From: Spirochaetia bacterium
GTDB taxonomy: Bacteria; Spirochaetota; Spirochaetia; Treponematales; Treponemataceae
Direction: 5' to 3'
NCBI GenBank assembly: GCA_900769975.1
Contig: CAAGIR010000142.1
Location: 3,869-67,868, forward strand
DNA length: 64,000 nt
The notes under the pieces were generated by a model, which saw only the letters and a program-made list of their open reading frames with translations, made no database searches and had not been told where the DNA came from. A program made the position numbers and the translations under genes. This document shows, one piece after another, positions 668 through 40,104 of this stretch (position 1 is its first letter; every line of letters starts with the position of its first letter).

Positions 668-2143
668 CTACTCGTCATCCTCTGTAAATTCAAACTCAAC
701 ACCACAATTTGGACATCGAGTCATGTCAAGGGTGATTTTTGTACCACATTCAGGACAGAAATATTCTTCTTCCTCTTGTGCTTCATCTTCACTGTTTGCA
801 GATACAGAATCTTGTTCAGCACTTTCTTCAGTTTCATCTTCTACAAACTCAACATTATCATTGATAAGAGCATTAATCTTATCAAGGTCTTCTTTTGTCA
901 CACCTTCAATATTAATTGTTCCATTATCGTACGCTTCAACAAAATCTTGTATTTCTTGAATGCCGTTTTCAATTAATTTATTTGCAATTTCTTCGTCAAC
1001 ACCAGGAAGTTCTGCAACAGTAGTAATTTCATCAACTGTTTCATCAACAAAAAGACTTCTTGCATTCTGAACAGTATTAACATTAGAAAAGTCAATATCC
1101 TCTGCCTGTTCAACTGTTTTTACATCGATATTCCAGTCACAAAGTCTATTTGCAAGCCTTACATTTTGTCCCTGTTTACCGATTGCCAAAGAAAACTGAG
1201 AATCTTCAACAATTGCAAGTGCCTGACGTTTGTCTGCATCCATAATTACAACACGTTCAACCTGTGCAGGAGAAAGTGCATTTTTAATAAATTCAACAGG
1301 ATTTGAATCCCATCGCAAAACGTCGATTTTTTCGTTTAAAAGTTCTCTGATAACATTTTGAATTCGAACACCTTTTAAACCGACACACGCACCGACAGGA
1401 TCAACTTCTTCACGTTTAGAATAAACTGCAATTTTTGTACGATAACCTGCGTCACGAACAATTTTCTGGATTTCTACAGTTCCATCAGCAATTTCTGGAA
1501 CTTCTTTTTCAAGAATAGAACTAACAAGTTTTGCATCGCTTCTAGAAAGAACCAGCTGAATACCTGAATTTGTAGGTTTTACGTCTACAATCAAAGCTTT
1601 AATTCTGTCACCTTTTTCATAAACTTCAAGTTTTGACTGATATTTTAATGGCAAAACCCCTTCAACTTTTCCAGAATTACCCAAATCAATATAAATGTTT
1701 CCGTTTTTCTCTCGCTGATAATATCCGATTATGATTTCACCAACTTTATCACGATAATCATTCATTAAAGAATTTTTGTAAGTTTCGTTTAATCCCTGAT
1801 GAGCTGTCTGTTTACCAGTTGCAACAGCAGAACGGTCAAAAGATTTAGGATCTTCAAGAATATCTATCTGATCGCCTTCCTCAATATCATCCCCTGCAAG
1901 TTTTTTTGCTTCTTCCAGTTCAATTTCTTTTACTGGATCATAAACACCATCAATAATAACTTTTCTTGAATAAATTGAAACATCTGACATATCATCGTTA
2001 AATTTTACGATTGCGTTTTCATCTGTCCCATAAGTTCGTTTGTATGCAGCCTTTAATGCTCTTTCAATTGTCTGTCTTACTGAATCTTCAGAATAACCTT
2101 TTTCTGAAATCAGCTGACGGATAGCCTCTGCCATTTCTGACAT
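668..2143 (-). CDS. nusA: Transcription termination/antitermination factor NusA
   Basis: A 491-aa ORF with a NusA N-terminal domain, S1 and KH domains, and a C-terminal Cys4 zinc-ribbon tail (CPECG...CPNCG). It sits between rimP and infB. Confidence 0.9.
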   Translation of the reverse strand: MSEMAEAIRQLISEKGYSEDSVRQTIERALKAAYKRTYGTDENAIVKFNDDMSDVSIYSRKVIIDGVYDPVKEIELEEAKKLAGDDIEEGDQIDILEDPKSFDRSAVATGKQTAHQGLNETYKNSLMNDYRDKVGEIIIGYYQREKNGNIYIDLGNSGKVEGVLPLKYQSKLEVYEKGDRIKALIVDVKPTNSGIQLVLSRSDAKLVSSILEKEVPEIADGTVEIQKIVRDAGYRTKIAVYSKREEVDPVGACVGLKGVRIQNVIRELLNEKIDVLRWDSNPVEFIKNALSPAQVERVVIMDADKRQALAIVEDSQFSLAIGKQGQNVRLANRLCDWNIDVKTVEQAEDIDFSNVNTVQNARSLFVDETVDEITTVAELPGVDEEIANKLIENGIQEIQDFVEAYDNGTINIEGVTKEDLDKINALINDNVEFVEDETEESAEQDSVSANSEDEAQEEEEYFCPECGTKITLDMTRCPNCGVEFEFTEDDE

Positions 2144-2153
2144 TTCAAGCCTC

Positions 2154-2612
2154 CTATAATAAAAACTTTGCTTTTGCTATATTTTCATAAGGCACTGTGA
2201 TATCATCACTACCTTCTTTTTCCAAAGTTACTGATTTGTCATCTGCACTTTTTATTGTTCCACCAACCCAGTCATTAACGGATTTATCCCAAACCCGAAT
2301 CGTCCTTCCAGTAAAAATTGCAAATTCAGCAGCATTTTTAATGTTATGTTCAATTCCTGGTGAAGTTAATTCCATGGAAGTTTCTTCGGTTCCGAGCAAC
2401 GCTTCAAGTCTTGGCAATAAAACTCTGTGAACTTTTGCACAGTCATTTACACCAATATTTTCATTTGGATCAGAAGAACAAATCATTGCTGATATTTTTG
2501 TAATAGATTTAGCAGGAATGATTTTTAATTCAACAAGTTTAAATCCCATTCCTTCTACCAATGCGGCACATTCTTTGTAATACTTAATGTTTTTATATGA
2601 ATTATATTCCAT
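2154..2612 (-). CDS. rimP: Ribosome maturation factor RimP
   Basis: A 152-aa ORF immediately upstream of nusA, with RimP-like length and sequence character. Confidence 0.75.
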   Translation of the reverse strand: MEYNSYKNIKYYKECAALVEGMGFKLVELKIIPAKSITKISAMICSSDPNENIGVNDCAKVHRVLLPRLEALLGTEETSMELTSPGIEHNIKNAAEFAIFTGRTIRVWDKSVNDWVGGTIKSADDKSVTLEKEGSDDITVPYENIAKAKFLL

Positions 2613-2699
2613 ACTAGATTAAACAGTTTATAAACATTTATTTTTTTAATATGACAAGATTTTTTTTCCTGATTAATCAAATAAATATTTAAACATTAA

Positions 2700-2730
2700 A
2701 TAAAAAAGACCCGTGCAGGCACGAGTCTTT
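2700..2730 (-). terminator. Rho-independent terminator downstream of hisS
   Basis: Hairpin gacccgtgc/gcacgagtc at 2708-2727. On the minus strand it is followed by a T-run (A-run at 2702-2707 on the plus strand). Confidence 0.5.
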
Positions 2731-2844
2731 TAATACTAATATTAAACTGACTAAGTAAGACTATCATTTATTGTAAAAAGTGTCAATATATCTTGTAAAA
2801 TGTAAATCGCACAATTGCAAATCGCTCAAATTTTTTTTGAAAAA

Positions 2845-4083
2845 TTACTTTAATACAATTTCTCCGTCTTTTGCAACGGCAAATTTTGTAAAGCCTTGTT
2901 TTTCAAGCATGTCAAATTGCGGTCCTGCTTTTTTTGCTTTTTTGAAAATTGAAACATTGTAGTCTTTGCGCAGGGACGAGGCTTCTTCCATCACTTTTGA
3001 AAAAGAAACAGAATCATCATAAATTAATGCACATCTATCCTTTTCGCCAGGAATTTCATAATTCTGTTCCAGCAAGATACTGCAAATTCTTTCAAAACCA
3101 ATGCTGAAACCAACTGCAGGAACATTCTGCCCCGTAAATTTTCCAATTAAATTATCATAACGGCCGCCGCCACCGATTGCACCGCTAAAAAGTGGACTTG
3201 CAATTTCAAAAACGACACCAGTGTAATAACCTTGTCCACGAACAAGATTTGGACAATATTTTACGTCATATTTTCCATGTGAAATTTCTTTTGCAGTTTT
3301 AATTATATATTTTAAATCTTCTCCAATAGAAGAATCCGAACATTTTGAAATGACATTTTCAAGCGTAATTTCACCCTGCGAAATAAATTCAACAAGACTG
3401 TTTATAGCATCAGAAGGGAATTGTTTTTCTACAAGTTCATTTTTAACGCCTTCCACACCGATTTTGTCCAGTTTATCAAATGTAATGCAAACAGAATCAA
3501 TTGTCTGTGGCAAAAATCCCATAGATTCAAGCATATTTCTTAAAATGCGTCTGTCATTAATATTAATGTAAAAATCTGAAAAACCGATGGAAAGCATTGC
3601 ATTTGCTGTAACGTCTATCAACTCTACTTCAGCATTTACGCTGGAATCACCAAGGATATCGATATCGCACTGAACAAATTCACGTAACCTGCCTTTTTGC
3701 GGACGTTCTGCACGATAAACTCTGTCTGTTTGAATTACTTTAAATGGAAAAGTCAATTCATTTTTGTTTGCCGAATAAAATCTTGTAAGCGGAAGCGTTA
3801 AATCATATCGCAATCCCATATCAGACAATTCTTTTTCAGTAGGATTTTCTTTTGATAAAGCATCATTTAATTTTTCGCCACGTTTTAAAATCTTAAAGAT
3901 AAGGTTTAAATTATCGCCACCATCAGATTTATCAAGATTTTCAGAATCTTCAAGAATTGGTGTGGAAATGCGTTCAAAACCATTTGCCCTGTAAGTTTCC
4001 AAAATTTTAGACTGAACAAAATCTCGCATTCTCTGTTCCTGCGGTAAAATATCTTTTGTTCCTTTTAATGCATTTGTTTTCAT
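2845..4083 (-). CDS. hisS: Histidyl-tRNA synthetase
   Basis: Class II aaRS motifs: GTKDILP near the N-terminus; motif 2 YRAERPQKGRLREFVQ; motif 3 GGGGRYDNL; a C-terminal anticodon-binding region. HisZ cannot be fully excluded. Confidence 0.8.
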   Translation of the reverse strand: MKTNALKGTKDILPQEQRMRDFVQSKILETYRANGFERISTPILEDSENLDKSDGGDNLNLIFKILKRGEKLNDALSKENPTEKELSDMGLRYDLTLPLTRFYSANKNELTFPFKVIQTDRVYRAERPQKGRLREFVQCDIDILGDSSVNAEVELIDVTANAMLSIGFSDFYININDRRILRNMLESMGFLPQTIDSVCITFDKLDKIGVEGVKNELVEKQFPSDAINSLVEFISQGEITLENVISKCSDSSIGEDLKYIIKTAKEISHGKYDVKYCPNLVRGQGYYTGVVFEIASPLFSGAIGGGGRYDNLIGKFTGQNVPAVGFSIGFERICSILLEQNYEIPGEKDRCALIYDDSVSFSKVMEEASSLRKDYNVSIFKKAKKAGPQFDMLEKQGFTKFAVAKDGEIVLK

Positions 4084-4172: not shown

Positions 4173-5300
4173 TTAACATCTGCAAAAAAAATGGTCAAAT
4201 TTCACGCCTTCGCCACTTTTTACATCCTGCTTCAACTGTTTCCCAATAAACAAATCATAATACGCAGGACTTTCTCCCACAGTCAGGATTTTTTCTGTCC
4301 GCAAAATCTGAATGTCATCCTGTGTAATAAAATCACCTGCACGCAAGTTTTTCATGTAATGGAGGCTTCTGTTTGTTCGATTATAGTTATTTATTTCGGC
4401 AAAAGCAAGACGTTTTACACCGTCCCCAAGACATTTTTGAACTTTTAATTCTCCAAACTGTTCATTCATCTGCTGCAACGCACGATTTGTTCCTGTTTCT
4501 TTTCCATAATGACGGAGTGTTGCTTCTGTTTGATGCACTATATGCACCATCAAGGCAAACTGCTCTGGTTCCAATGCAACTGGATCATCAAGCCCGTCCG
4601 TCTGTCTGCTCAGCGTAATGTGTTTTTCTAGGACTTTTGCCCCGCACAAAATGCTTAAACATGGCACAAGAACTGGGTCCAGACTGTGATCGCTAACACC
4701 GCAAGGCACTCCAAAAATATTGCTTAAATTCTGTATTACTTTTAAATTGTATTCTTCTTCGGGAGCAGGATATGCCGTTATGCAATGAAGCAACTGAATT
4801 TTATCTGTCCCGAGAATCTGCAGAGCGTTTTCTATATCTGACAGTTTTGAAACTCCGCTTGAAAGAATTACAGAAACTTTTTCCTTGCTTTCACGATAAT
4901 CATGCAAATCCTGTAACATTTTAAAATGATTTAATTCAGGACTTGCAACCTTAACATAATCTGGTTCAATTTCCAGAAGTTCTTTAAGACTTTTTTGTCC
5001 GAATGGCGAACAGCAGAATTTAACTCCTTTTGAATGAGCATAATCTTTTAAAGTAAGATAAAAATCTTTATCACATTCTAATTGCTTAAATCTGTCATAT
5101 AAAGGGATTTTCCCTGTAGGTAAAGACACAAATCCTGTATCACTGTGAAGGATTTCATCTGCATAAACCCATTGGAATTTTACTGTATCGGCTCCGCTTT
5201 GAACCGCTGCATCTACCAGTTCTTTTGCTTTTTCTATAGAACCTTCGTGTGATGTTCCAATTTCTGCAATAATATTTATATCAGACATTTTCCATTCCAA
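4173..5300 (-). CDS. NeuB-family nonulosonic acid synthase (sialic, legionaminic or pseudaminic acid synthase-like) with a C-terminal SAF domain
   Basis: N-terminal IIAEIGTSHEGS...GADTVKFQ matches the NeuB TIM-barrel signature. The C-terminus is SAF/antifreeze-like. No other neu, pse or leg genes are adjacent. Confidence 0.7.
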   Translation of the reverse strand: MEWKMSDINIIAEIGTSHEGSIEKAKELVDAAVQSGADTVKFQWVYADEILHSDTGFVSLPTGKIPLYDRFKQLECDKDFYLTLKDYAHSKGVKFCCSPFGQKSLKELLEIEPDYVKVASPELNHFKMLQDLHDYRESKEKVSVILSSGVSKLSDIENALQILGTDKIQLLHCITAYPAPEEEYNLKVIQNLSNIFGVPCGVSDHSLDPVLVPCLSILCGAKVLEKHITLSRQTDGLDDPVALEPEQFALMVHIVHQTEATLRHYGKETGTNRALQQMNEQFGELKVQKCLGDGVKRLAFAEINNYNRTNRSLHYMKNLRAGDFITQDDIQILRTEKILTVGESPAYYDLFIGKQLKQDVKSGEGVKFDHFFCRC

Positions 5301-22756: not shown

Positions 22757-23134
22757 TTACATCACTTTTTCTATAATAACAAATGCTACGGCAAATTCTT
22801 TTTCGTGACTTAAAGATACAAAAAGGTTATTATCGCTGCATCGTTCCTGAAGTATTTTTTTTGCATTATTTTCGATATTTAAAATAGGTTTTCCTTCCTT
22901 ATTATTTGTAATATAAACATCTTTTAAACTAAAATCTGTAATTCCCGTTCCCAACGCTTTTGAAAATGCTTCCTTTGCTGCAAAACGTGCCGCGTAATGC
23001 TCACACTTTGCATAAATGCTTCCTTTTTCCATTATTTCATTTTCATTAAAAAAACGAGCTATAAAATCGGGATTATTTACCCATTTTTCAAAACGATTTA
23101 CTTTTGCAATATCCGTTCCGATTCCATAAATCAT
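22757..23134 (-). CDS. acpS: Holo-[acyl-carrier-protein] synthase
   Basis: MIYGIGTDIAKVNRF N-terminus characteristic of AcpS. The start is placed at the internal Met (the track ORF extends to 23170). Confidence 0.8.
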   Translation of the reverse strand: MIYGIGTDIAKVNRFEKWVNNPDFIARFFNENEIMEKGSIYAKCEHYAARFAAKEAFSKALGTGITDFSLKDVYITNNKEGKPILNIENNAKKILQERCSDNNLFVSLSHEKEFAVAFVIIEKVM

Positions 23135-23153
23135 TGTTATACCTGTTTTTCCT

Positions 23154-24263
23154 TTATTCCTGATTACCACTATTCACTGCAGGATTTTCATTTTTAAGCA
23201 TGTTGTTTACGGCACCTTCAACTTTTGACATCATCAAATCCTTGTGATTTTTATTATCGGACACATTTTCCACTGGAGTTATAGAATTATCTTCATCGTA
23301 AAGATTTTCTTCAAGTTCATTTGTCTTTTTTATTACTTTTATATTAACTTTTTCAAATGACTTACTTATCGTTTCGAACTTTTTGGGAACATTCAGTTTT
23401 ACGCTTAAAGTATAAGTACCTTCTGATTGTATTTCTGAACAATCTATGTATGCAAAATTTTCCGGCGGTTCATAAGATTCCAGGTCGGGCATTGTTCCTT
23501 TTAACAAAACATTTAACTTTGGTACGGTAGAAATAATTTCAAATTCATCAGAAAGAGTGCGAGCTTCAATGTTAATGTTTGTAATTTGTTTTTCATAATT
23601 TAAAGGTGCGATTATCACCGTTGCAGTAAAAGGAGTTTCTTCCAGAATTTCTATATTCTTTGAAGGCTTTATGTATTCAACTTCTGATTTAAATGTATTT
23701 TTCGCATTTGAAACATTAATTTTTGTTGTTTCTATGACAGTTATTTTATCCAGAACAGATTTAGCACCAGAAATCTGTAAAAAAGACGGATTCATTTCTA
23801 CAGCAGAAACGGTATAGCCATGTGCCGCATCTCCTACAACAGAAGGCGAAAATTCAACATATTTTGTTTCTTTATAATCAACTTTGATGTTTACCTGACG
23901 ATCCTTTAATTTTACTTCCAGAGGATCATATTCCATCAGTTTATCGGAAAGATTTAATTGTACAGGAATTTGATATGAACCTTTTTCTGTAATATTGTCC
24001 AGATCAACAACTGCTTCGAAATCAGAAGATACGATGGATTTTACATCGCTGTCATTTCCCCTTACAACAACGGCAACAGCAGAAGGAACAGTTCCCACAT
24101 GCATAACAAGGCCGTTTTCTATTATTTTTAAAGGGACTACGACATTTTTTTTATCAATAATTGAAGTCTGATGAAAGATATACAAAAAAATTGAAATAAT
24201 CAGACAGATGATTTTTACAGGCCAGTTATCAAGAAGCCTGCTAATTAATGATTTTTTGTTCAT
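23154..24263 (-). CDS. cdaR: YbbR-domain protein (CdaR, regulator of diadenylate cyclase CdaA)
   Basis: N-terminal transmembrane segment then repeated YbbR-like beta-rich domains. Its start overlaps the 3' end of cdaA. Confidence 0.7.
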   Translation of the reverse strand: MNKKSLISRLLDNWPVKIICLIISIFLYIFHQTSIIDKKNVVVPLKIIENGLVMHVGTVPSAVAVVVRGNDSDVKSIVSSDFEAVVDLDNITEKGSYQIPVQLNLSDKLMEYDPLEVKLKDRQVNIKVDYKETKYVEFSPSVVGDAAHGYTVSAVEMNPSFLQISGAKSVLDKITVIETTKINVSNAKNTFKSEVEYIKPSKNIEILEETPFTATVIIAPLNYEKQITNINIEARTLSDEFEIISTVPKLNVLLKGTMPDLESYEPPENFAYIDCSEIQSEGTYTLSVKLNVPKKFETISKSFEKVNIKVIKKTNELEENLYDEDNSITPVENVSDNKNHKDLMMSKVEGAVNNMLKNENPAVNSGNQE

Positions 24264-25056
24264 CTATCGTATCCTCCACAACTTTTTGCTCAGAAGTAAT
24301 TTCAAGAAGGTTTTCAAGAATTTTTCGTATTTCATCAGATGATAAATCGTAATTAAGTTTTGAATCGTAGGCAAGACTTAACGCGCCAGATTCTTCTGAA
24401 ACAACAAGAACTACAGCATCAGACACTTCTGAAAGTCCAAGGGCTGCACGGTGACGAGTTCCATACGTTTTTTTAATAGTATAATTTTCACTTACAGGCA
24501 AAAAACATCCTGCAGCTACAAGTTTACCGCCTTTTATAAAACACGCTCCATCGTGTAAAGAAGTGTCTTTTCCAAAAATTGTTATAAGCAAAGTTGAAGA
24601 AAGATCGGCATTAAGTTTTGTACCTGTCTGTATGTAATTTTCAAGCTGAGTATTCCGCATAAAAACTGCGAGCATTCCTCTTTTTTGTTTAGAAAGCATT
24701 TCAGCCGCTATTAAAACTGCATCTACATAAGTGTGTTTTGATTTTTTACCAAATGCGAACCACCCGTTTTGCCCAATTCTGATAAAAAGTTTTCGGATTT
24801 CTGGCTGGAAAATTAAAGCAAAAGCAATAACAAGCCCTGGAGCGATTAAATTTAAAAGCCAGAGTAAAGTCTGCAAATCTAAAAGTACGGCAACTCCAAA
24901 AGCAATTGCAACAATAACAAGTGCTTTGAACATCTGAACGCCATTCGTTTTTGAAATAAAATCATAGGCCTTGTATAAAATGAAAGTCATTACCGCAATA
25001 TCCAAAAGAGGCCTAATAAAATCGTATATGTGTATAAACTTGTCAAACCCAACCAT
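24241..25056 (-). CDS. cdaA: Membrane-anchored diadenylate cyclase (c-di-AMP synthase) CdaA
   Basis: Three N-terminal transmembrane helices then a DAC domain (DGA...GTRHRAALGLSEVSDAVVLVVSEESG). Confidence 0.85.
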   Translation of the reverse strand: MVGFDKFIHIYDFIRPLLDIAVMTFILYKAYDFISKTNGVQMFKALVIVAIAFGVAVLLDLQTLLWLLNLIAPGLVIAFALIFQPEIRKLFIRIGQNGWFAFGKKSKHTYVDAVLIAAEMLSKQKRGMLAVFMRNTQLENYIQTGTKLNADLSSTLLITIFGKDTSLHDGACFIKGGKLVAAGCFLPVSENYTIKKTYGTRHRAALGLSEVSDAVVLVVSEESGALSLAYDSKLNYDLSSDEIRKILENLLEITSEQKVVEDTIDEQKIIN

Positions 25057-25152
25057 ATCTATATAGTTTATCGTATTTTATAAGATTTATCACGTGTTTT
25101 TTATTCATTTTTAAAAATTTAATGTAATTTTCAGTTTAAAATTAAACTTCTA

Positions 25153-25440
25153 TAAAAATTGCACACCGCAGAAAGTTTCAACTTTCGAGGATTGCAATTG
25201 CGTTCGCGTTCTCGCGAACAGTCCAATAACAGAGTTTCCCCAGAAACTCTAAGTTAAATCAAATGGCGCCATTTCAGCCATTTGATTTATACTTCCTTAA
25301 AATTGCACACCGCAGAAAGTTTCAACTTTCGAGGATTGCAATTGCGTTCGCGTTTTCGCGAACAATTTAATAAGAGAGTTTCGTAAGAAACTCTAAGTTA
25401 AATCAAATGGCGCTATTTCAGCCATTTGATTTATACGTTG
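25153..25440. repeat. Tandem direct repeat, 2 copies of about 144 bp (about 93% identical), each carrying five palindromic or hairpin elements
   Basis: Copy 1 begins near 25155 (aaaattgcacaccgcag...) and copy 2 near 25299. Each unit contains gaaagtttcaactttc, gcaattgc, ttcgcg-N4-cgcgaa, agagttt-N6-aaactct and aaatcaaatgg-N11-ccatttgattt. Confidence 0.85.
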
Positions 25441-25448
25441 AAATTAAT

Positions 25449-25498
25449 AAAAAAAATACAAAAAAAAACACCACAGACTGATGGATTGCCTGTGGTGT
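25449..25498 (-). terminator. Rho-independent terminator of the flgE transcript
   Basis: Perfect 9-bp stem acaccacag/ctgtggtgt (25468-25498) with a 13-nt loop. On the minus strand it is followed by a T-run of at least 8, interrupted once. Confidence 0.7.
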
Positions 25499-25566
25499 CA
25501 AAAAACTTCAAAAGTATTAGACTTTATCGGTAATATTATTTTTTTATTTTGTACTGCTATTTAAGA

Positions 25567-26958
25567 TTATCGTTTCAATCCTAAAACAGTTTCAAGCAAA
25601 GTATCTGCAGTCTGAATTGTTTTTGCATTCGACTGGAAACCACGCTGTGTTACAATCATATCTGTAAGCTGTTCAGAAAGGTCAACGTTTGACATTTCCA
25701 AAGCACCAGCCATCAAAGAACCTTTTCCAGCCACCCCAGATTCGCCAATTCTTGCCATACCAGAGTTGTTTGATTCTACATAAGTGTTATCACCTTTTTT
25801 TTCAAGACCTCTGTCGTTTGCGAATGTAGCCATTGCAATCTGACCGATTGTGCGGTTTGTTCCATTTGAATAAACACCTGTAATAATTCCGCTGGAATCA
25901 ATTTTGAAATTATCAAGATAACCCATTGTATATCCATCTTGATAAAATGCTTTTGTTGTTGACTTTGAAGCCGACTGTGTAATTGTATCTTTGAAAGAAC
26001 CGATTGTTCCAAGATTTATATTTAAAGTCTGACGATAAGGATTTCCCTGTTCATCAACATTTGAATCAGAAACTGCAAAAGATGCCTGAACTACAACATT
26101 TCCTTCTGGATTTGTTACATTTCCTGCAGTATCAGTAACTGACTGCAAAGCACCATAATTGTCAAAGTTTACGATAAAAGTGTTTCCCATACCGTCTGTT
26201 GTACCAAGTCCTACTCTAGTCTGTGTATAATCAGCATTGTCAGGATCAATCTGAACTGTTGCTTCCCACTGATTAGGATTTCCAACTACACGGCGGAATG
26301 AAACAGATAGCATATGTTCGTTTCCAAAACTATCGTAAATTTTCTGTTCTGTTCCCCATGTTCCTTTGAAAATGTCATCAGCACTAGCTCCTTCAAGAAT
26401 TTCAGGAGTATTTTTATTTAAGTTACATGCAAAATTTACATTTGTCGTTTCTTTTGCAGGATCTTTCGAACCTACTGGAATAATCAAATCTTCCGGGGTT
26501 GCCGCTGTAGTAACAAGCATCTGTCCGTTAATTTCTTCTGCCATCCATCCTTGAACACGCATACCGTTTGCAGGATTAACCAGCGTTCCGTCCATATCAA
26601 GTCCAAAAGCACCGTTTCTTGTATAATAAGTTTCTTCACCATTTTTCATCACAAAAAATCCGTTACCCTGGATAGCAAGGTCAGTAGAAATACCAGTAGA
26701 CTGAAGATTTCCTTGAGTGAATACGTTGTCAATAGAAGCAACTGTCATTCCAAGACCAACTTCTTTTGGGTTTACACCGCCCAGTTCATCAGTTGGTTTT
26801 GCAGCACCGCTTAACTGCTGACTAATCATATCCTGAAAATTAACACGTCCACGTTTAAATCCGTTTGTATTAACATTTGAAATGTTATTACCAATTACGT
26901 CCATTCTTGTCTGGTGATTCTGTAATCCAGAAACTCCAGAATAAAGTGATCTCATCAT
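25567..26958 (-). CDS. flgE: Flagellar hook protein FlgE
   Basis: N-terminal [35 protein letters not shown] and C-terminal [26 protein letters not shown], the conserved terminal regions of flagellar basal body and hook proteins. 463 aa, as in Treponema FlgE. Confidence 0.95.
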
Positions 26959-26987: not shown

Positions 26988-27434
26988 TTAGTTAGCGTAA
27001 ATTGCTGCTATTTTATCCATCGAATAATACATACCATTTACAAGAATCTGAGGATTGTCCCCTCGTGTTGCACCTTCCACAATTCCTGTTGTAGTTGTAT
27101 CTCCAATATTCAATTCAACTGTTTTTCCAAGAGTCGAAGCGGCTTCCGAACTGTTAATAAACGAAGCCATTTTACTAAAAGCAGAACTCATGTTTGTCAT
27201 CTGCTCCAAAGAACTGAATTGTGCCATCTGCGAAATAAATTCAGTGTTTTCCATAGGATTTGTAGGATCCTGATTTGAAAGCTGGGTAATCAACAATTTT
27301 AGAAAATCATCTTTTCCCAATTCATTGGAAGTTTTCTTCCCTTCTTTTACAAGTGTCTTGTTATAGTTGTTAACCTGGTTTTCAACTAATGCTTTGTCAC
27401 TTGCATTCATTTGTGTGTTAAGTAGTTCCATCAT
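26988..27434 (-). CDS. flgD: Flagellar hook assembly (capping) protein FlgD
   Basis: Conserved FlgD N-domain ([22 protein letters not shown]). Immediately upstream of flgE. Confidence 0.85.
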
Positions 27435-27514: not shown

Positions 27515-29113
27515 TTACGCAACAATGTTTACTGAATAATTTGAATATTTTTCTGCTGCATCTGCAAAATTTTCTGCTGCAGATACAGAAGCACCGTCAC
27601 CATTTGAATAAACTCTTTTTGCAAGAAGTTCTGTTCCGTCATTTTGATTTTCAAAACCAGAATTTTGAGCAAAAGATGAATTTGAATTGTTGTAAGAAAC
27701 TTCAAATCCTGCTGCATCAAATCCGTTTTTAATGAACGCTTCTCGTAAAGTTTCAGCATTATCTTTAAAAACCTGGAGTGCTTCCTTTGAAGAAACAATT
27801 ATATTTGCCGAAATAGATTTTCCATCCAAAGAAAGATGAATTTTTACATTTCCCAAATCATCAGGATGCAAGACAAGATTAATTTGTCCCTGGTCATTAT
27901 CTTTCAGGATAATATTTCCCGCTTTTACAAATTCTGGAACGCTGTTTTGAATCTGATTATTAAGCATTGCCTGGAAATTTGAACCGTTTGAACCAGCTGT
28001 CTGATTATTCAAAGAAAGAACATCAGCATTTATATTCTGATTCATTTCCATATTGATGTAAGGAACGCCTTCTTCGGAAAGTTCAAGTTTTGACATTTTA
28101 AGTTCTGCACCAAATCCATCATTTTTTGAATTTCCGTTTTCGCCGTTTTTCATTAAATCTGCATTTTTATGAGCAACACTTCGCAAATCCTGCACAGTTA
28201 TTTTGCCATTATTTGAAACAGAAAGTGCATTTTTTTCATTCTGACTCATTTCAAGCATTTTTGAAAAGTCAGATTCTTCATTGCTTTCAGAATTTCCAGA
28301 ATCAGAACCTTTTTGCAGATTTTTTTGCAAACCGTTTTGACTTACATTTTCTAGATTTTGTGCCAGCAGAATATTTTCATCAAAATTCTGATTATTTTGT
28401 TCAAAATCTTCTATATTATTTTTATTAATCAAAGATTTTGAAAGTCCTTTTTTTTCATCAGAAGTGATTTTTGAAGCATTTTCTGTTTTTTCTGCAAGAT
28501 TGCGACTGCCATTAAAAGAAATTTCATTAACTCTGTCAAAATCTCTGTCAGAAAGAACTTTGCTGTTTTTTGATGATTTTTTGTCGGACACATTTTTATC
28601 CGATTTTTTACTCAAAGAAACGTTTTCATCATTTTCAAGATTTTTATCACCATCTTGTCGAACAAAATGTACGTCATTTTTTTTGTTTTCTTCCGCGGCA
28701 AAGTCATTTTTGTTTTCATCAACTTTTTGTGAAGTTTCATCTGATGTTTTTTCTTTGTATGCTACATTTGATTCAGTTTTCTGTTTTTCGTAAAAATCAG
28801 AAACTCTTTCACTTCCAGAATTAAAAGTTTCACCACCATCAAAACTTTTTACTTCACCCGCTTCAGATTTAAATGAACTTTGAACAAAACTTTTTTCACC
28901 AAAAACATTTTTATTCAAATCAGAATTATAGGAATTAAGCATATCCATAAAAGAAACGGATTTTCCATTATTATTGCTGTTTTGAATATTGTTTTGGGAA
29001 GAAGAACCGTTCAAATTAAATGAAACGTTTTGAGAATCAAAATTAAAATTTGTAATTGTCTGATAAGACACTTGGCAAATCTCCCTAAATATTGTGACAG
29101 ATTTGCCAATCAA
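27515..29113 (-). CDS. fliK: Flagellar hook-length control protein FliK (Tap1-like)
   Basis: C-terminal Flg_hook domain (INLVLHPDDLGNVKIHLSLDGKSISANIIV) and a long low-complexity N-terminal region. Located upstream of flgD-flgE. Confidence 0.75.
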   Translation of the reverse strand: MIGKSVTIFREICQVSYQTITNFNFDSQNVSFNLNGSSSQNNIQNSNNNGKSVSFMDMLNSYNSDLNKNVFGEKSFVQSSFKSEAGEVKSFDGGETFNSGSERVSDFYEKQKTESNVAYKEKTSDETSQKVDENKNDFAAEENKKNDVHFVRQDGDKNLENDENVSLSKKSDKNVSDKKSSKNSKVLSDRDFDRVNEISFNGSRNLAEKTENASKITSDEKKGLSKSLINKNNIEDFEQNNQNFDENILLAQNLENVSQNGLQKNLQKGSDSGNSESNEESDFSKMLEMSQNEKNALSVSNNGKITVQDLRSVAHKNADLMKNGENGNSKNDGFGAELKMSKLELSEEGVPYINMEMNQNINADVLSLNNQTAGSNGSNFQAMLNNQIQNSVPEFVKAGNIILKDNDQGQINLVLHPDDLGNVKIHLSLDGKSISANIIVSSKEALQVFKDNAETLREAFIKNGFDAAGFEVSYNNSNSSFAQNSGFENQNDGTELLAKRVYSNGDGASVSAAENFADAAEKYSNYSVNIVA

Positions 29114-31226: not shown

Positions 31227-33227
31227 ATGCTTAATCTTGAAACATTAAAAAACGAATTAAATCCGCAGCAATATAAAGCAGTAACAACCACAGACGGTGC
31301 CATTCTGATTATTGCTGGTGCTGGTTCTGGTAAAACACGTGTAATTACATTCAGAATTGCACACATGCTCGATAAAGGAATTCCACAAAGTCAGATTCTG
31401 GCATTGACTTTTACAAATAAAGCCGCAAAAGAAATGGCTGACCGTATAAAAAGTCTGACGCAAAAAAAACTTCAAAACCTTACTGTATCAACTTTTCATG
31501 CTTTTGGAGTAAAAGTTCTTCGTGCAGATATTGATAAACTGGGTTACAGGGAAAATTTTTCTATTTATGATGAAACAGACAGAGTTGCGCTTATAAAAGA
31601 ATGTGGCCGTGAATTGAAATTTTCACCAGAAGCGATGGACATCTACATGATTGGAAATTTAATTTCAAATATAAAGACTGGCCGTAAAAACTGGGATACT
31701 TCGAATGATATGTACAGACCTTTGTACGAAAGCTATCAGGAAGGGCTGAAACTTTTTAATGCTGTTGATTTTGATGACTTGATTGTACTTCCCATTAAAC
31801 TTTTTAAAGAGTATCCTGACGTTCTTGAAAGATACCGGGACCGCTACAAATACATTATGGTGGATGAATTTCAAGATACAAGTCATCAGCAATATGAATT
31901 TATGCATCTTCTGGCAGATAAAAATGTTGCTGTCGTTGGTGATGATGATCAAAGCATTTACAGCTGGCGTGGTGCCGACTATCAGAATATAATTAATTTT
32001 GAACATGATTTTGACGTTACGGAAATAAGGCTTGAACAAAATTACCGTTCAACAGGGACAATCCTCGAAGCTGCAAACGGTGTAATTTCGCACAACACAA
32101 ACCGCAAAGATAAAAAACTTTGGAGTGGAAACGGTGCTGGAAAACCAATCGAAATTTTCATGCCGGAAAACGAAAACGATGAGGCGGATTTTATTGCAGA
32201 AAGCATTTTAGGAATTGCCCACGAAGAAAACCGTAAATATGATGATTTTGGTGTTTTAATGCGCTCAAATTCACAGGGAAGATTTATAGAAGAAGCCTTT
32301 TTACAAAATAATATCCCCTACACTATGAGCGGCGGAACATCTTTTTTTGAAAGAAAAGAAATAAAAGATGTGATCAGTTATCTGAGGGTAATAGCTAATC
32401 ATGATGATGAAATTAACCTTATCAGAATAATTAACTGTCCGCGGCGTGGAATAGGACGGGCGGCAATCCAATTATTAAATGATGAAGCAAGACTGCAAGG
32501 GTGTTCTATGTGGAATGCAATGATTTCGCTCATAAAAAGACAAGATTCTCCTGCAAGCGAAATTTTAAAAGAAGATTTAAGCGAATTTATGAATATCATT
32601 GAAAACCATCGCCAAAAACTTCTAACAGGACATGGTTTATCCCAAAAAGTGCGTCAATTAATAGAAGATATTAATTACAAAGATTATCTTTTAACAGAAT
32701 ATTCCAGAAACGAAAAGGCTGTCCGCTTTAAAATGAAAAATATCGAAAGCCTTTTAAATTCTATTGAAGTGTGGGAAAATAATCCAGATAATGATAATCC
32801 GAATATTTTTAATTATTTAAACAGAATTACTTTGATGAGTCGTGACAAAGACGATGAAAATGATAAAGGAAAAGTCAACCTGATGACAATTCATGCATCA
32901 AAAGGGCTTGAATTTCCTGTTGTTTTCATCGCTGGTGCCGAAGAAGGATTGATTCCTCATGCTCGTTCTGTTGAAGAAAACAAAGGAGATGTTGAAGAAG
33001 AACGAAGGCTTTTTTATGTTGCCATCACAAGAGCAAGGGACAAACTGATTATATCATCATGCAGAAAAAGAAGGCATATGCAGATGGTAACTGAAAGCGA
33101 ACCAAGCCGATTTTTAGATGAAATTCCTGTAAATCTTGTAGAATATCACGAACCAAAAACAATCACGCTGGAAGAAACAGGCAAAATGTTTGGTGACTTT
33201 CTGGAACAATTAAAAAAACGAAATTAA
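31227..33227 (+). CDS. pcrA: UvrD/PcrA/Rep-family ATP-dependent DNA helicase
   Basis: Walker A AGAGSGKTRV, motif II VDEFQDT, and C-terminal helicase motifs. Confidence 0.9.
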   Translation: MLNLETLKNELNPQQYKAVTTTDGAILIIAGAGSGKTRVITFRIAHMLDKGIPQSQILALTFTNKAAKEMADRIKSLTQKKLQNLTVSTFHAFGVKVLRADIDKLGYRENFSIYDETDRVALIKECGRELKFSPEAMDIYMIGNLISNIKTGRKNWDTSNDMYRPLYESYQEGLKLFNAVDFDDLIVLPIKLFKEYPDVLERYRDRYKYIMVDEFQDTSHQQYEFMHLLADKNVAVVGDDDQSIYSWRGADYQNIINFEHDFDVTEIRLEQNYRSTGTILEAANGVISHNTNRKDKKLWSGNGAGKPIEIFMPENENDEADFIAESILGIAHEENRKYDDFGVLMRSNSQGRFIEEAFLQNNIPYTMSGGTSFFERKEIKDVISYLRVIANHDDEINLIRIINCPRRGIGRAAIQLLNDEARLQGCSMWNAMISLIKRQDSPASEILKEDLSEFMNIIENHRQKLLTGHGLSQKVRQLIEDINYKDYLLTEYSRNEKAVRFKMKNIESLLNSIEVWENNPDNDNPNIFNYLNRITLMSRDKDDENDKGKVNLMTIHASKGLEFPVVFIAGAEEGLIPHARSVEENKGDVEEERRLFYVAITRARDKLIISSCRKRRHMQMVTESEPSRFLDEIPVNLVEYHEPKTITLEETGKMFGDFLEQLKKRN

Positions 33228-39463: not shown

Positions 39464-39647
39464 ATTTATTTATACATTAACACTCTTTTTATTTAATGTC
39501 AAACATTTTTTTTAAAAAATTCTATTTTTTTTATTTTTTTTGGCTTTTTATACATTTTAGGGTAAATTTTAGTCAGAAAATGCTTTCAAAAAAGACATTA
39601 AAGCAAAAAAAAACTCCTGTTTTAGAACAGAAGCTTTATTTTTTTTA

Positions 39648-39721
39648 TGCGTCTGACAGGATTCGAACCTGCCACCTACGGATTCGAAGTCCGTTGCTCT
39701 ATCCAAATGAGCTACAGGCGC
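39648..39721 (-). tRNA. tRNA-Arg (anticodon UCG)
   Basis: Cloverleaf: acceptor GCGCCUG/CAGACGC with one C·A mismatch at 4-69. Anticodon loop CUUCGAA. T-arm GCAGGTTCGAATCCTGC. Confidence 0.85.
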
Positions 39722-39751
39722 ATTCTAAAAGGTTACATTAATGCACCTTAG

Positions 39752-39824
39752 GGTGCCTAGTCGGGATCGAACCGACGACAACCAGATCCACAATCTGGCG
39801 CTCTACCGCTGAACTATAGGCACC
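39752..39824 (-). tRNA. tRNA-His (anticodon GUG)
   Basis: G(-1) pairs with discriminator C. Acceptor GTGCCTA/TAGGCAC. Anticodon loop TTGTGGA. Confidence 0.85.
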
Positions 39825-39855
39825 GTAATTAACATTTTGACATTTCAAAATGCTA

Positions 39856-39928
39856 TGAGCCATGCAAGGATCGAACTTGCGACCCACAGATTAAGAGTCT
39901 GTTGCTCTACCTGCTGAGCTAATGGCCC
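39856..39928 (-). tRNA. tRNA-Lys (anticodon CUU)
   Basis: Acceptor GGGCCAT/ATGGCTC. Anticodon loop CTCTTAA. T-arm GTCGCAAGTTCGATCCTTGC. Confidence 0.85.
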
Positions 39929-40104
39929 ATAAATCACATAAGTGACTTAATGGAAACTATTCTAAATCAAAACCCAAAAATAATCAATAGATTAAAGCAT
40001 AATTTTCTAAACTTTTCTGCCAGAGTCATTTTTTTTACCAATAAATCAACAAAAAAAGATGAATTACACTTTTATTTCACCCTTTTTAACTATATAATAA
40101 AAAT

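Follow-up and report, generated by a model that had tools for sequence, protein, structure and literature searches.

What is a pair of hairpin-rich repeats doing between a flagellar hook operon and an operon for c-di-AMP synthesis? The question was raised by a 64-kb stretch of DNA (the window, by which we mean the whole stretch analyzed). An initial annotation, made from the letters alone, had described two tandem 144-bp units, about 93% identical, in the 510-bp spacer between flgE and cdaA, and had suggested that they could be a structured RNA or a set of protein-binding palindromes, with a regulatory array coupling these two operons as one option.

Layout of the flgE-cdaA spacer

The spacer covers positions 25057 to 25566 (510 nt), and the flanking genes are all on the minus strand. 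Upstream in the direction of transcription are fliK (27515 to 29113), flgD (26988 to 27434), and flgE (25567 to 26958), which closes the fliK-flgD-flgE block. Downstream are cdaA (24241 to 25056), ybbR/cdaR (23154 to 24263; Pfam YbbR), and acpS (22757 to 23170; Pfam ACPS). Pfam confirmed both neighbors named by the initial annotation, the flagellar hook protein FlgE by the domains Flg_bb_rod, LlgE_F_G_D1, FlgE_D2, and Flg_bbr_C and the diadenylate cyclase CdaA by its DAC domain. Spirochete fla operons usually continue from flgE into flbD-motA-motB, which does not follow flgE in the window.

Read in the direction of transcription, the spacer starts with the flgE intrinsic terminator (25458 to 25499, minus strand), a 12-bp stem with a 9-nt loop and then nine U (-18.7 kcal/mol, z -4.1). 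It is also present in L018, the contig of the closest relative, and was missed by a consensus terminator scan solely through that scan's loop limit of 8. The two units and an AT-rich stretch of about 95 nt come next. The ~45 nt that directly precede the cdaA ATG are kept in the window, L018, and L023, regardless of the upstream gene, and this block (25057 to 25100, minus strand; CGTGATAA..AAAATA..TAA..ATG), which is outside the repeat, is presumably the cdaA promoter region. The terminator fold and the conserved block agree with the earlier placement of the array, downstream of the flgE terminator and upstream of the likely cdaA promoter. Promoter-like sites in the spacer were no commoner than in shuffles, so we claim no promoter for the units. 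A coding role for the spacer was rejected, as the small ORFs on both strands (21 to 35 aa) are unsupported by the pattern of differences. Because the cdaA start at 25056 is without a Shine-Dalgarno sequence and a -10-like TAAACT lies only 8 nt before the ATG, the sequence leaves room for a leaderless cdaA or a true start further downstream, either of which may apply. In L018, the gene caller chose a cdaA start 27 nt downstream.

Comparison of the two units

TRF reported a single array at 25155 to 25436 (period 144, 2.0 copies, 93% matches, no indels, score 501), and a second repeat search gave an agreeing result, which bears out the tandem units described earlier. Each unit is 144 nt long, unit 1 (25151 to 25294) being proximal to cdaA and unit 2 (25295 to 25438) proximal to flgE, and the two are arranged head-to-tail with 93% identity. 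Pieces of the unit of 32 to 33 nt occur at only these two sites in 64 kb, with 0 expected from shuffles, and a filter-free covariance-model scan of the 64-kb window found just the two units and no further copies. A weak model match at 32364 to 32523 on the minus strand, inside a 666-aa ORF, was rejected as a chance match (17 bits).

The initial annotation had spoken of a tandem duplication. The head-to-tail tandem stands, and a duplication in place at flgE-cdaA is not supported by the sequences, since only 7 differences separate unit 2 from a copy in a different genome and at a different locus (L005), against 14 aligned positions at which it differs from unit 1. Unit 1 is about equidistant from all copies, and its first 4 nt deviate from the family consensus CCTT. 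Our covariance model, R1, scored unit 2 at 165.8 bits and unit 1 at 157.1 bits. All 10 differences in the 138-nt core fall in loops or linkers and none in stems, for which our own arithmetic gives a chance of ~1.7e-4 with ~58 of the 138 positions unpaired. Thus, the earlier statement that stems are kept and differences fall elsewhere held, and the stem boundaries given with it had to be redrawn.

Hairpin architecture and covariation

Instead of the five palindromes per unit listed in the initial annotation, we found four hairpin modules. Module D consists of an outer stem, AATTGCA/TGCAATT plus CC/GG, around GAAAGT-TTCA-ACTTTC; module C is GTTCGCG-N4-CGCGAAC; module B is AGAGTTTC-N4-GAAACTCT; and module A has a 13-bp stem and a 9-nt loop. 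In plus-strand coordinates, they occupy 25157 to 25199 (D), 25202 to 25219 (C), 25231 to 25250 (B), and 25255 to 25289 (A) in unit 1 and 25301 to 25343, 25346 to 25363, 25375 to 25394, and 25399 to 25433 in unit 2, and the corrected stem lengths are 6 bp (around the loop TTCA), 7, 8, and 13 bp. The supposed hairpin "gcaattgc" was rejected, since nothing is left in it to form a loop; these letters make up the 3' arm of an outer stem, AATTGCA...TGCAATT, around GAAAGT/ACTTTC.

Compared with its own shuffles, each unit folds far better on either strand (z -6.5 to -9.4). When 20 distinct copies were aligned with the model as a guide, 97.8% of cells were standard pairs, a value that falls to 30 to 45% when the partners are slid, and changes on both sides occur in 36 of 40 pairs; 0 of 500 shuffles matched the observed values for pairing and double changes. 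A MAFFT alignment with RNAalifold, which is independent of the model, returned the same four modules, and covariation was found in all four hairpins. These results support selection on the stems for intramolecular pairing of one strand, either as RNA or as single-stranded DNA, and uphold the earlier view that the stems are selected for secondary structure and are not junk. Several unpaired segments are near-fixed, namely, ACCGCAG and CGAGGATTGC in D, whose conservation was partly imposed by the search pattern, a linker ending in AATAA, AAGTTAAA, and the A loop GCGCCATTTCAGC.

On the plus strand, raw counts, which include shared ancestry and a model-fitted alignment, give 22 G-U against 10 A-C pairs, mostly in hairpin A; with nonhomologous stretches and shared ancestry removed, about 10 versus 3 independent events are left. 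Two motifs sought by eye were abandoned: a kink-turn in the internal loop of hairpin D, which is contradicted by covariation at the first stem pairs, and CsrA-type GGA motifs, with one AGGA per unit only.

Relation to Rfam TD-1 and TD-2

The initial annotation knew of no element of this architecture and named an Rfam search as a check. That search gave relatives on opposite strands, TD-1 and TD-2 of the common clan CL00124, all below the gathering thresholds. TD-1 (RF03155) matched the minus strand of unit 2 at 25295 to 25403 (55.9 bits, E 2.7e-8) and of unit 1 at 25151 to 25259 (48.1 bits), below its gathering score of 64.5 bits. The alignment runs end to end in both units (model 1 to 120 of 120) with two noncanonical pairs marked, and both units have the TD-1 architecture of three hairpins with the third nested in an outer stem. 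On the plus strand, TD-2 (RF03162) matched unit 2 at 25346 to 25426 (28.9 bits) and unit 1 at 25203 to 25291 (23.7 bits), below its gathering score of 48.7 bits, so that the two motifs overlap in antisense in both units, as they also do in L005 and L014. Across the family, copies score 35 to 56 bits with TD-1 on one strand and up to 42.5 bits with TD-2 on the other. A TD-1 match over the entire model (1 to 120) was found in every full copy tested and a TD-2 match in some; none of the copies tested reached either gathering score. No other credible Rfam family was found for the units.

Rfam places TD-1 among cis-regulatory elements and TD-2 among small RNAs. They were described with 28 and 36 representatives, respectively, in Treponema denticola only, with covariation, modular stems, and some disruptive mutations, and their function was not known in 2007 (Weinberg et al. 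2007; PMC1950547). Seven TD-1 representatives overlap reverse complements of TD-2, with two hairpins common to both (PMC1950547). A search for literature on TD-1/TD-2 after 2007 found only this paper.

Judged by sequence and predicted fold, the 144-nt unit is such a TD-1/TD-2 overlap fused into one unit, and the repeat is a diverged sister of T. denticola TD-1/TD-2 in other Treponema species. Both are multicopy and intergenic in the genus Treponema, and they share the hairpin order (B, C, D in the TD-1 sense and C, B, A in the TD-2 sense), the antisense overlap with two common hairpins, and modular, covarying stems of variable length. They differ in that all copies tested here score below both gathering thresholds, that the hosts are gut organisms (T. 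porcinum and uncultured human and animal gut Treponema) and not T. denticola, that both motifs sit in one four-hairpin unit of 144 nt which forms head-to-tail arrays, and that the hairpin D loop is UGAA, not UGAU, in most copies. One copy, L016:1883-2037, carries the T. denticola consensus inner stem and loop, GGAAAT-ATCA-ATTTCC.

Two further features lie elsewhere in the window. A tRNA cluster at 39647 to 39929 on the minus strand comprises tRNA-Arg(TCG), tRNA-His(GTG), and tRNA-Lys(CTT). A subthreshold Rfam match to RF03531 (n00280, "C. difficile sRNA included into helicase gene") at 32967 to 33068 on the plus strand, with 53.2 bits against a gathering score of 65.2, lies inside the 666-aa ORF (31227 to 33227, plus strand) and is probably conserved coding sequence.

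Dispersal through gut Treponema genomes

An identical CdaA is present on human gut metagenome contigs, and the nearest named relatives are Treponema species. Using a structure-agnostic pattern in which only the unpaired parts of module D were fixed, we found 13 loci in Treponema metagenome-assembled genomes (MAGs) from human, pig, and deer gut and in T. porcinum ATCC BAA-908. A relaxed pattern, checked on the window and on these loci, added 8 loci in metagenomes; as both patterns required D, the census is biased to copies retaining this hairpin. The 33 matches of R1 comprise 31 distinct ones. The flgE-cdaA locus is not among the 13 genome loci, and outside the repeat no metagenome locus matched the window. 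With about 20 unrelated sites between genes occupied by related copies in several genomes of gut Treponema, that of T. porcinum among them, the element cannot be called peculiar to flgE-cdaA.

The initial annotation would have given up its structural claim had the unit turned out to be dispersed as a generic repeat without structure-preserving substitutions. Both the patterns and R1 found it scattered through genomes, and the covariation among the relatives' copies is strong; the structural inference stands because the dispersed copies do carry structure-preserving substitutions.

Among the R1 matches are full units, a unit lacking B (L026), and short forms that retain either D with C or C-B-A without D, and some units have an extra mini-hairpin nested in a loop. 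In two copies from the MAG RGIG9108 (L008, 2084 to 2242, and L015, 3964 to 4123), this is a 12-nt GCAAC-NN-GTTGC, which one copy carries in its module C loop and the other in its module B loop. All copies are intergenic, either alone or in tandem, with head-to-tail arrays in L011, L027, L028, L017, L013, and L015. In L011 (4733 to 5261; T. porcinum NZ_FUWG01000004.1), a three-unit array (4733 to 5153) stops 24 nt before a tRNA gene (5177 to 5261). Copy number looks low, with 2 in the 64-kb window and at least 7 on 4 contigs in RGIG9108, the best-sampled MAG. The neighboring genes are unrelated: ruvA, rsgA, a gene for a MiaB/RimO-type radical-SAM methylthiotransferase, znuA, and a luxR-type gene. 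Relative to codirectional genes, about 9 copies are in the TD-1 sense and about 3 in the opposite sense, which is not significant (two-sided binomial p ~0.15); convergent and divergent gene settings also host copies, in both orientations.

Copies at different loci from different samples can be nearly identical (L030 and L014, 2 differences in 145), and between two genomes with 68% identity in homologous coding DNA the elements are 81 to 83% identical. These comparisons suggest that the family is either strongly constrained or recently spread. No match to the repeat was found in viral contigs, phage records, or plasmid records.

Filled and empty sites

The closest relative, L018 (CdaA 96% identical, flanking DNA 95 to 97% identical), has the same order of fliK, flgD, flgE, terminator, and cdaA with a spacer of 185 nt and no unit. 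Its empty site retains "AAAACTTGCA", a sequence similar to the 5' arm of hairpin D; the difference from the window could mean that the units were inserted at a similar-looking site or that their deletion left this sequence as a scar. Relatives with 82 to 91% CdaA identity have dxs-folP-cdaA with 20 to 151 nt from folP to cdaA and no unit, and units are absent upstream of cdaA in all of L018 to L025. Synteny breaks at this point, as cdaA follows dxs-folP in the relatives L019 to L025 and fliK-flgD-flgE with the terminator in the window and L018.

Alternative explanations

Three rival readings have to be weighed against a dispersed repeat. One is a locus-specific regulatory array, a structured leader or tandem riboswitch-like device that couples the flagellar hook operon to c-di-AMP synthesis. 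The position directly between flgE and cdaA would suit it, as would the tandem arrangement, seen in some riboswitches, and the TD-1 sense, which is that of the gene strand. However, the empty orthologous site in L018, with the same gene order, largely refutes it; other relatives have cdaA 20 nt after folP, and elsewhere the unit adjoins unrelated genes. A cis leader or tandem riboswitch should keep a conserved position upstream of orthologues and inside the transcript, and neither was found here. The units are upstream of the conserved cdaA-proximal block, hence outside the cdaA leader unless the flgE terminator is read through, and with their absence upstream of cdaA in L018 to L025 the long structured leader proposed earlier is hardly tenable either. 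We regard the coupling array as scarcely credible. If the palindromes were instead duplex DNA to which dimeric proteins bind, say a nucleoid protein or an array of repressors, their perfect dyad symmetry, the equally good folding of both strands, and the intergenic position would be expected. A sequence-specific site would stay fixed, though, and here the arms change together with their sequence free (36 of 40 pairs), and G-T pairs are tolerated. Covarying arms point to pairing within one strand and not to sequence-specific binding of duplex DNA, so the protein-binding palindromes of the initial annotation fit poorly and are very improbable.

More can be said for a functional structured RNA family, either a trans-acting small RNA from the plus strand (TD-2 sense) or a cis element of mRNAs (TD-1 sense), whose paralogous copies in each genome would be kept by selection for RNA function. 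The strong covariation in four hairpins argues for it, as do the loops and linkers conserved across species, such as GCGCCATTTCAGC in hairpin A, which are more typical of such a family than of selfish DNA. The Rfam classes of TD-1 and TD-2, the predominance of G-U over A-C pairs in the plus-strand sense, mostly in hairpin A, and the 9-to-3 bias of the TD-1 sense along neighboring genes point the same way, but the G-U counts carry shared ancestry and a model-fitted alignment, and the bias is not significant. Against it are the occurrence in both orientations and in convergent and divergent settings, the failure to find a conserved promoter or terminator signal within the unit, the shuffle-level frequency of promoter-like sites in the region, the position of the array here between the strong flgE terminator and the promoter block and hence in neither transcription unit, and a near-identical strain, L018, without units. 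On balance, we consider this reading unlikely. The units are very probably copies of a dispersed TD-type repeat, and the absence of any locus-specific regulation by them is quite probable. Our reading as a whole, a strain-variable, modular TD-1/TD-2-type repeat pair between the flgE terminator and the cdaA promoter block, is likely, and the unit appears to be locally neutral or nearly so.

Element boundaries and possible mobility

In the orientation of the model, the element starts with CCTT and ends with ACGTT. Among 16 independent copies, 13 have 5' flanks ending in TT, and 10 of those end in SSTT (CCTT, CGTT, GGTT, or GCTT). The TT of the flank and the GTT of the element end may stem from a duplication of 2 nt, reflect a preferred target, or belong to the element itself. 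In three copies, the element's own first 15 to 19 nt are repeated just after it. No terminal inverted repeats beyond the internal hairpins and no clear target-site duplication were found at these ends, and a tblastn search of 280 kb with an IS200 TnpA query, a weak test, found nothing. Integron attC sites, considered because T. denticola carries an integron, were rejected on context, given the housekeeping neighbors, both orientations, and four hairpins versus one.

Elements of the REP/RAYT type and derivatives of IS200/IS605 (PATEs) likewise carry hairpins close to either end, lack terminal inverted repeats and an obvious target duplication, insert beside a short preferred sequence (here SSTT in the left flank), and may share a strand asymmetry of wobble pairs. 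They differ in that no Y1/HUH transposase partner for this unit was found in the 280 kb searched, and REP sequences are single palindromes of 20 to 40 nt with a conserved GTAG-type head, whereas this unit has four distinct hairpins with conserved linkers. The resemblance is a lead, not membership. The BOX elements of Streptococcus pneumoniae and the enterobacterial ERIC and BIME elements (see also PMC1590033) are, like the repeat, dispersed between genes in both orientations, strain variable, and without coding capacity, and they may be cotranscribed with their neighbors. They also consist of hairpin boxes in variable module number. No sequence relationship connects them to the repeat, whose copy number is apparently much lower and which has cleaner compensatory variation, conserved loops, and regular head-to-tail arrays of whole units.

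On the preferred reading of a dispersed TD-type repeat, the pair at flgE-cdaA would be a strain-variable insertion or a strain-variable loss. The repeat would behave like REP/BIME, BOX, and ERIC elements, being nonautonomous, spreading through recognition of its folded ends, and landing beside sites that end in SSTT. If its own 3' end, CGTT, mimics the target, new copies would land head-to-tail, which would explain the arrays. Spread as single-stranded DNA by an HUH/Y1-type enzyme is a possibility that we suggest tentatively, by analogy with the elements above. Should transcription read through the flgE terminator, the hairpins of the units could act as a barrier to 3' exonucleases or as a backup terminator; in the gene sense (TD-1), the unit would end with hairpin D and UUUU, a role like that of REP, ERIC, and BOX elements.

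It is rather doubtful that TD-type elements are more than passive, be it as a genus-wide functional RNA family with the conserved A and D loops as recognition sites or as a novel class of hairpin-guided, single-strand-mobilized, nonautonomous element that targets SSTT and forms its arrays through a 3' end resembling the target. Either, if true, would give the TD-1/TD-2 motifs, orphans since 2007, a mechanism. The TD-1/TD-2 kind was already known; what is new here is the gut Treponema variant, the fusion of the motifs, and the arrays. TD-1/TD-2 are accordingly not restricted to T. denticola and belong to a wider gut Treponema family that includes the culturable T. porcinum. The clean compensatory variation, the pair of filled and empty sites, and the boundary signature offer handles on these orphan elements, and the idea of a structured RNA linking the flagellar and c-di-AMP operons is removed.

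Consequences for annotation and assembly

In annotation, such units should be masked as repeats and not taken for regulators of a particular locus, and short-read assemblies of these genomes break at them. The metagenome contigs of the window strain, L003 and L004, stop inside the array. In L001 (2623 to 2762), an identical cdaA is joined, inside unit 2, to a different upstream context (MatE, Lactamase_B, and ABC_tran), and the junction runs through a third copy, a short form of modules C and D whose loop sequence is its own. Either another strain is truly rearranged here, or the third copy gave rise to a chimeric assembly; contig ends and joins of this kind are what a multicopy repeat does to short-read assemblies. 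In another contig, L014, about 1.36 kb between two repeat copies (1937 to 3300) has no match in the otherwise 99% identical L033.
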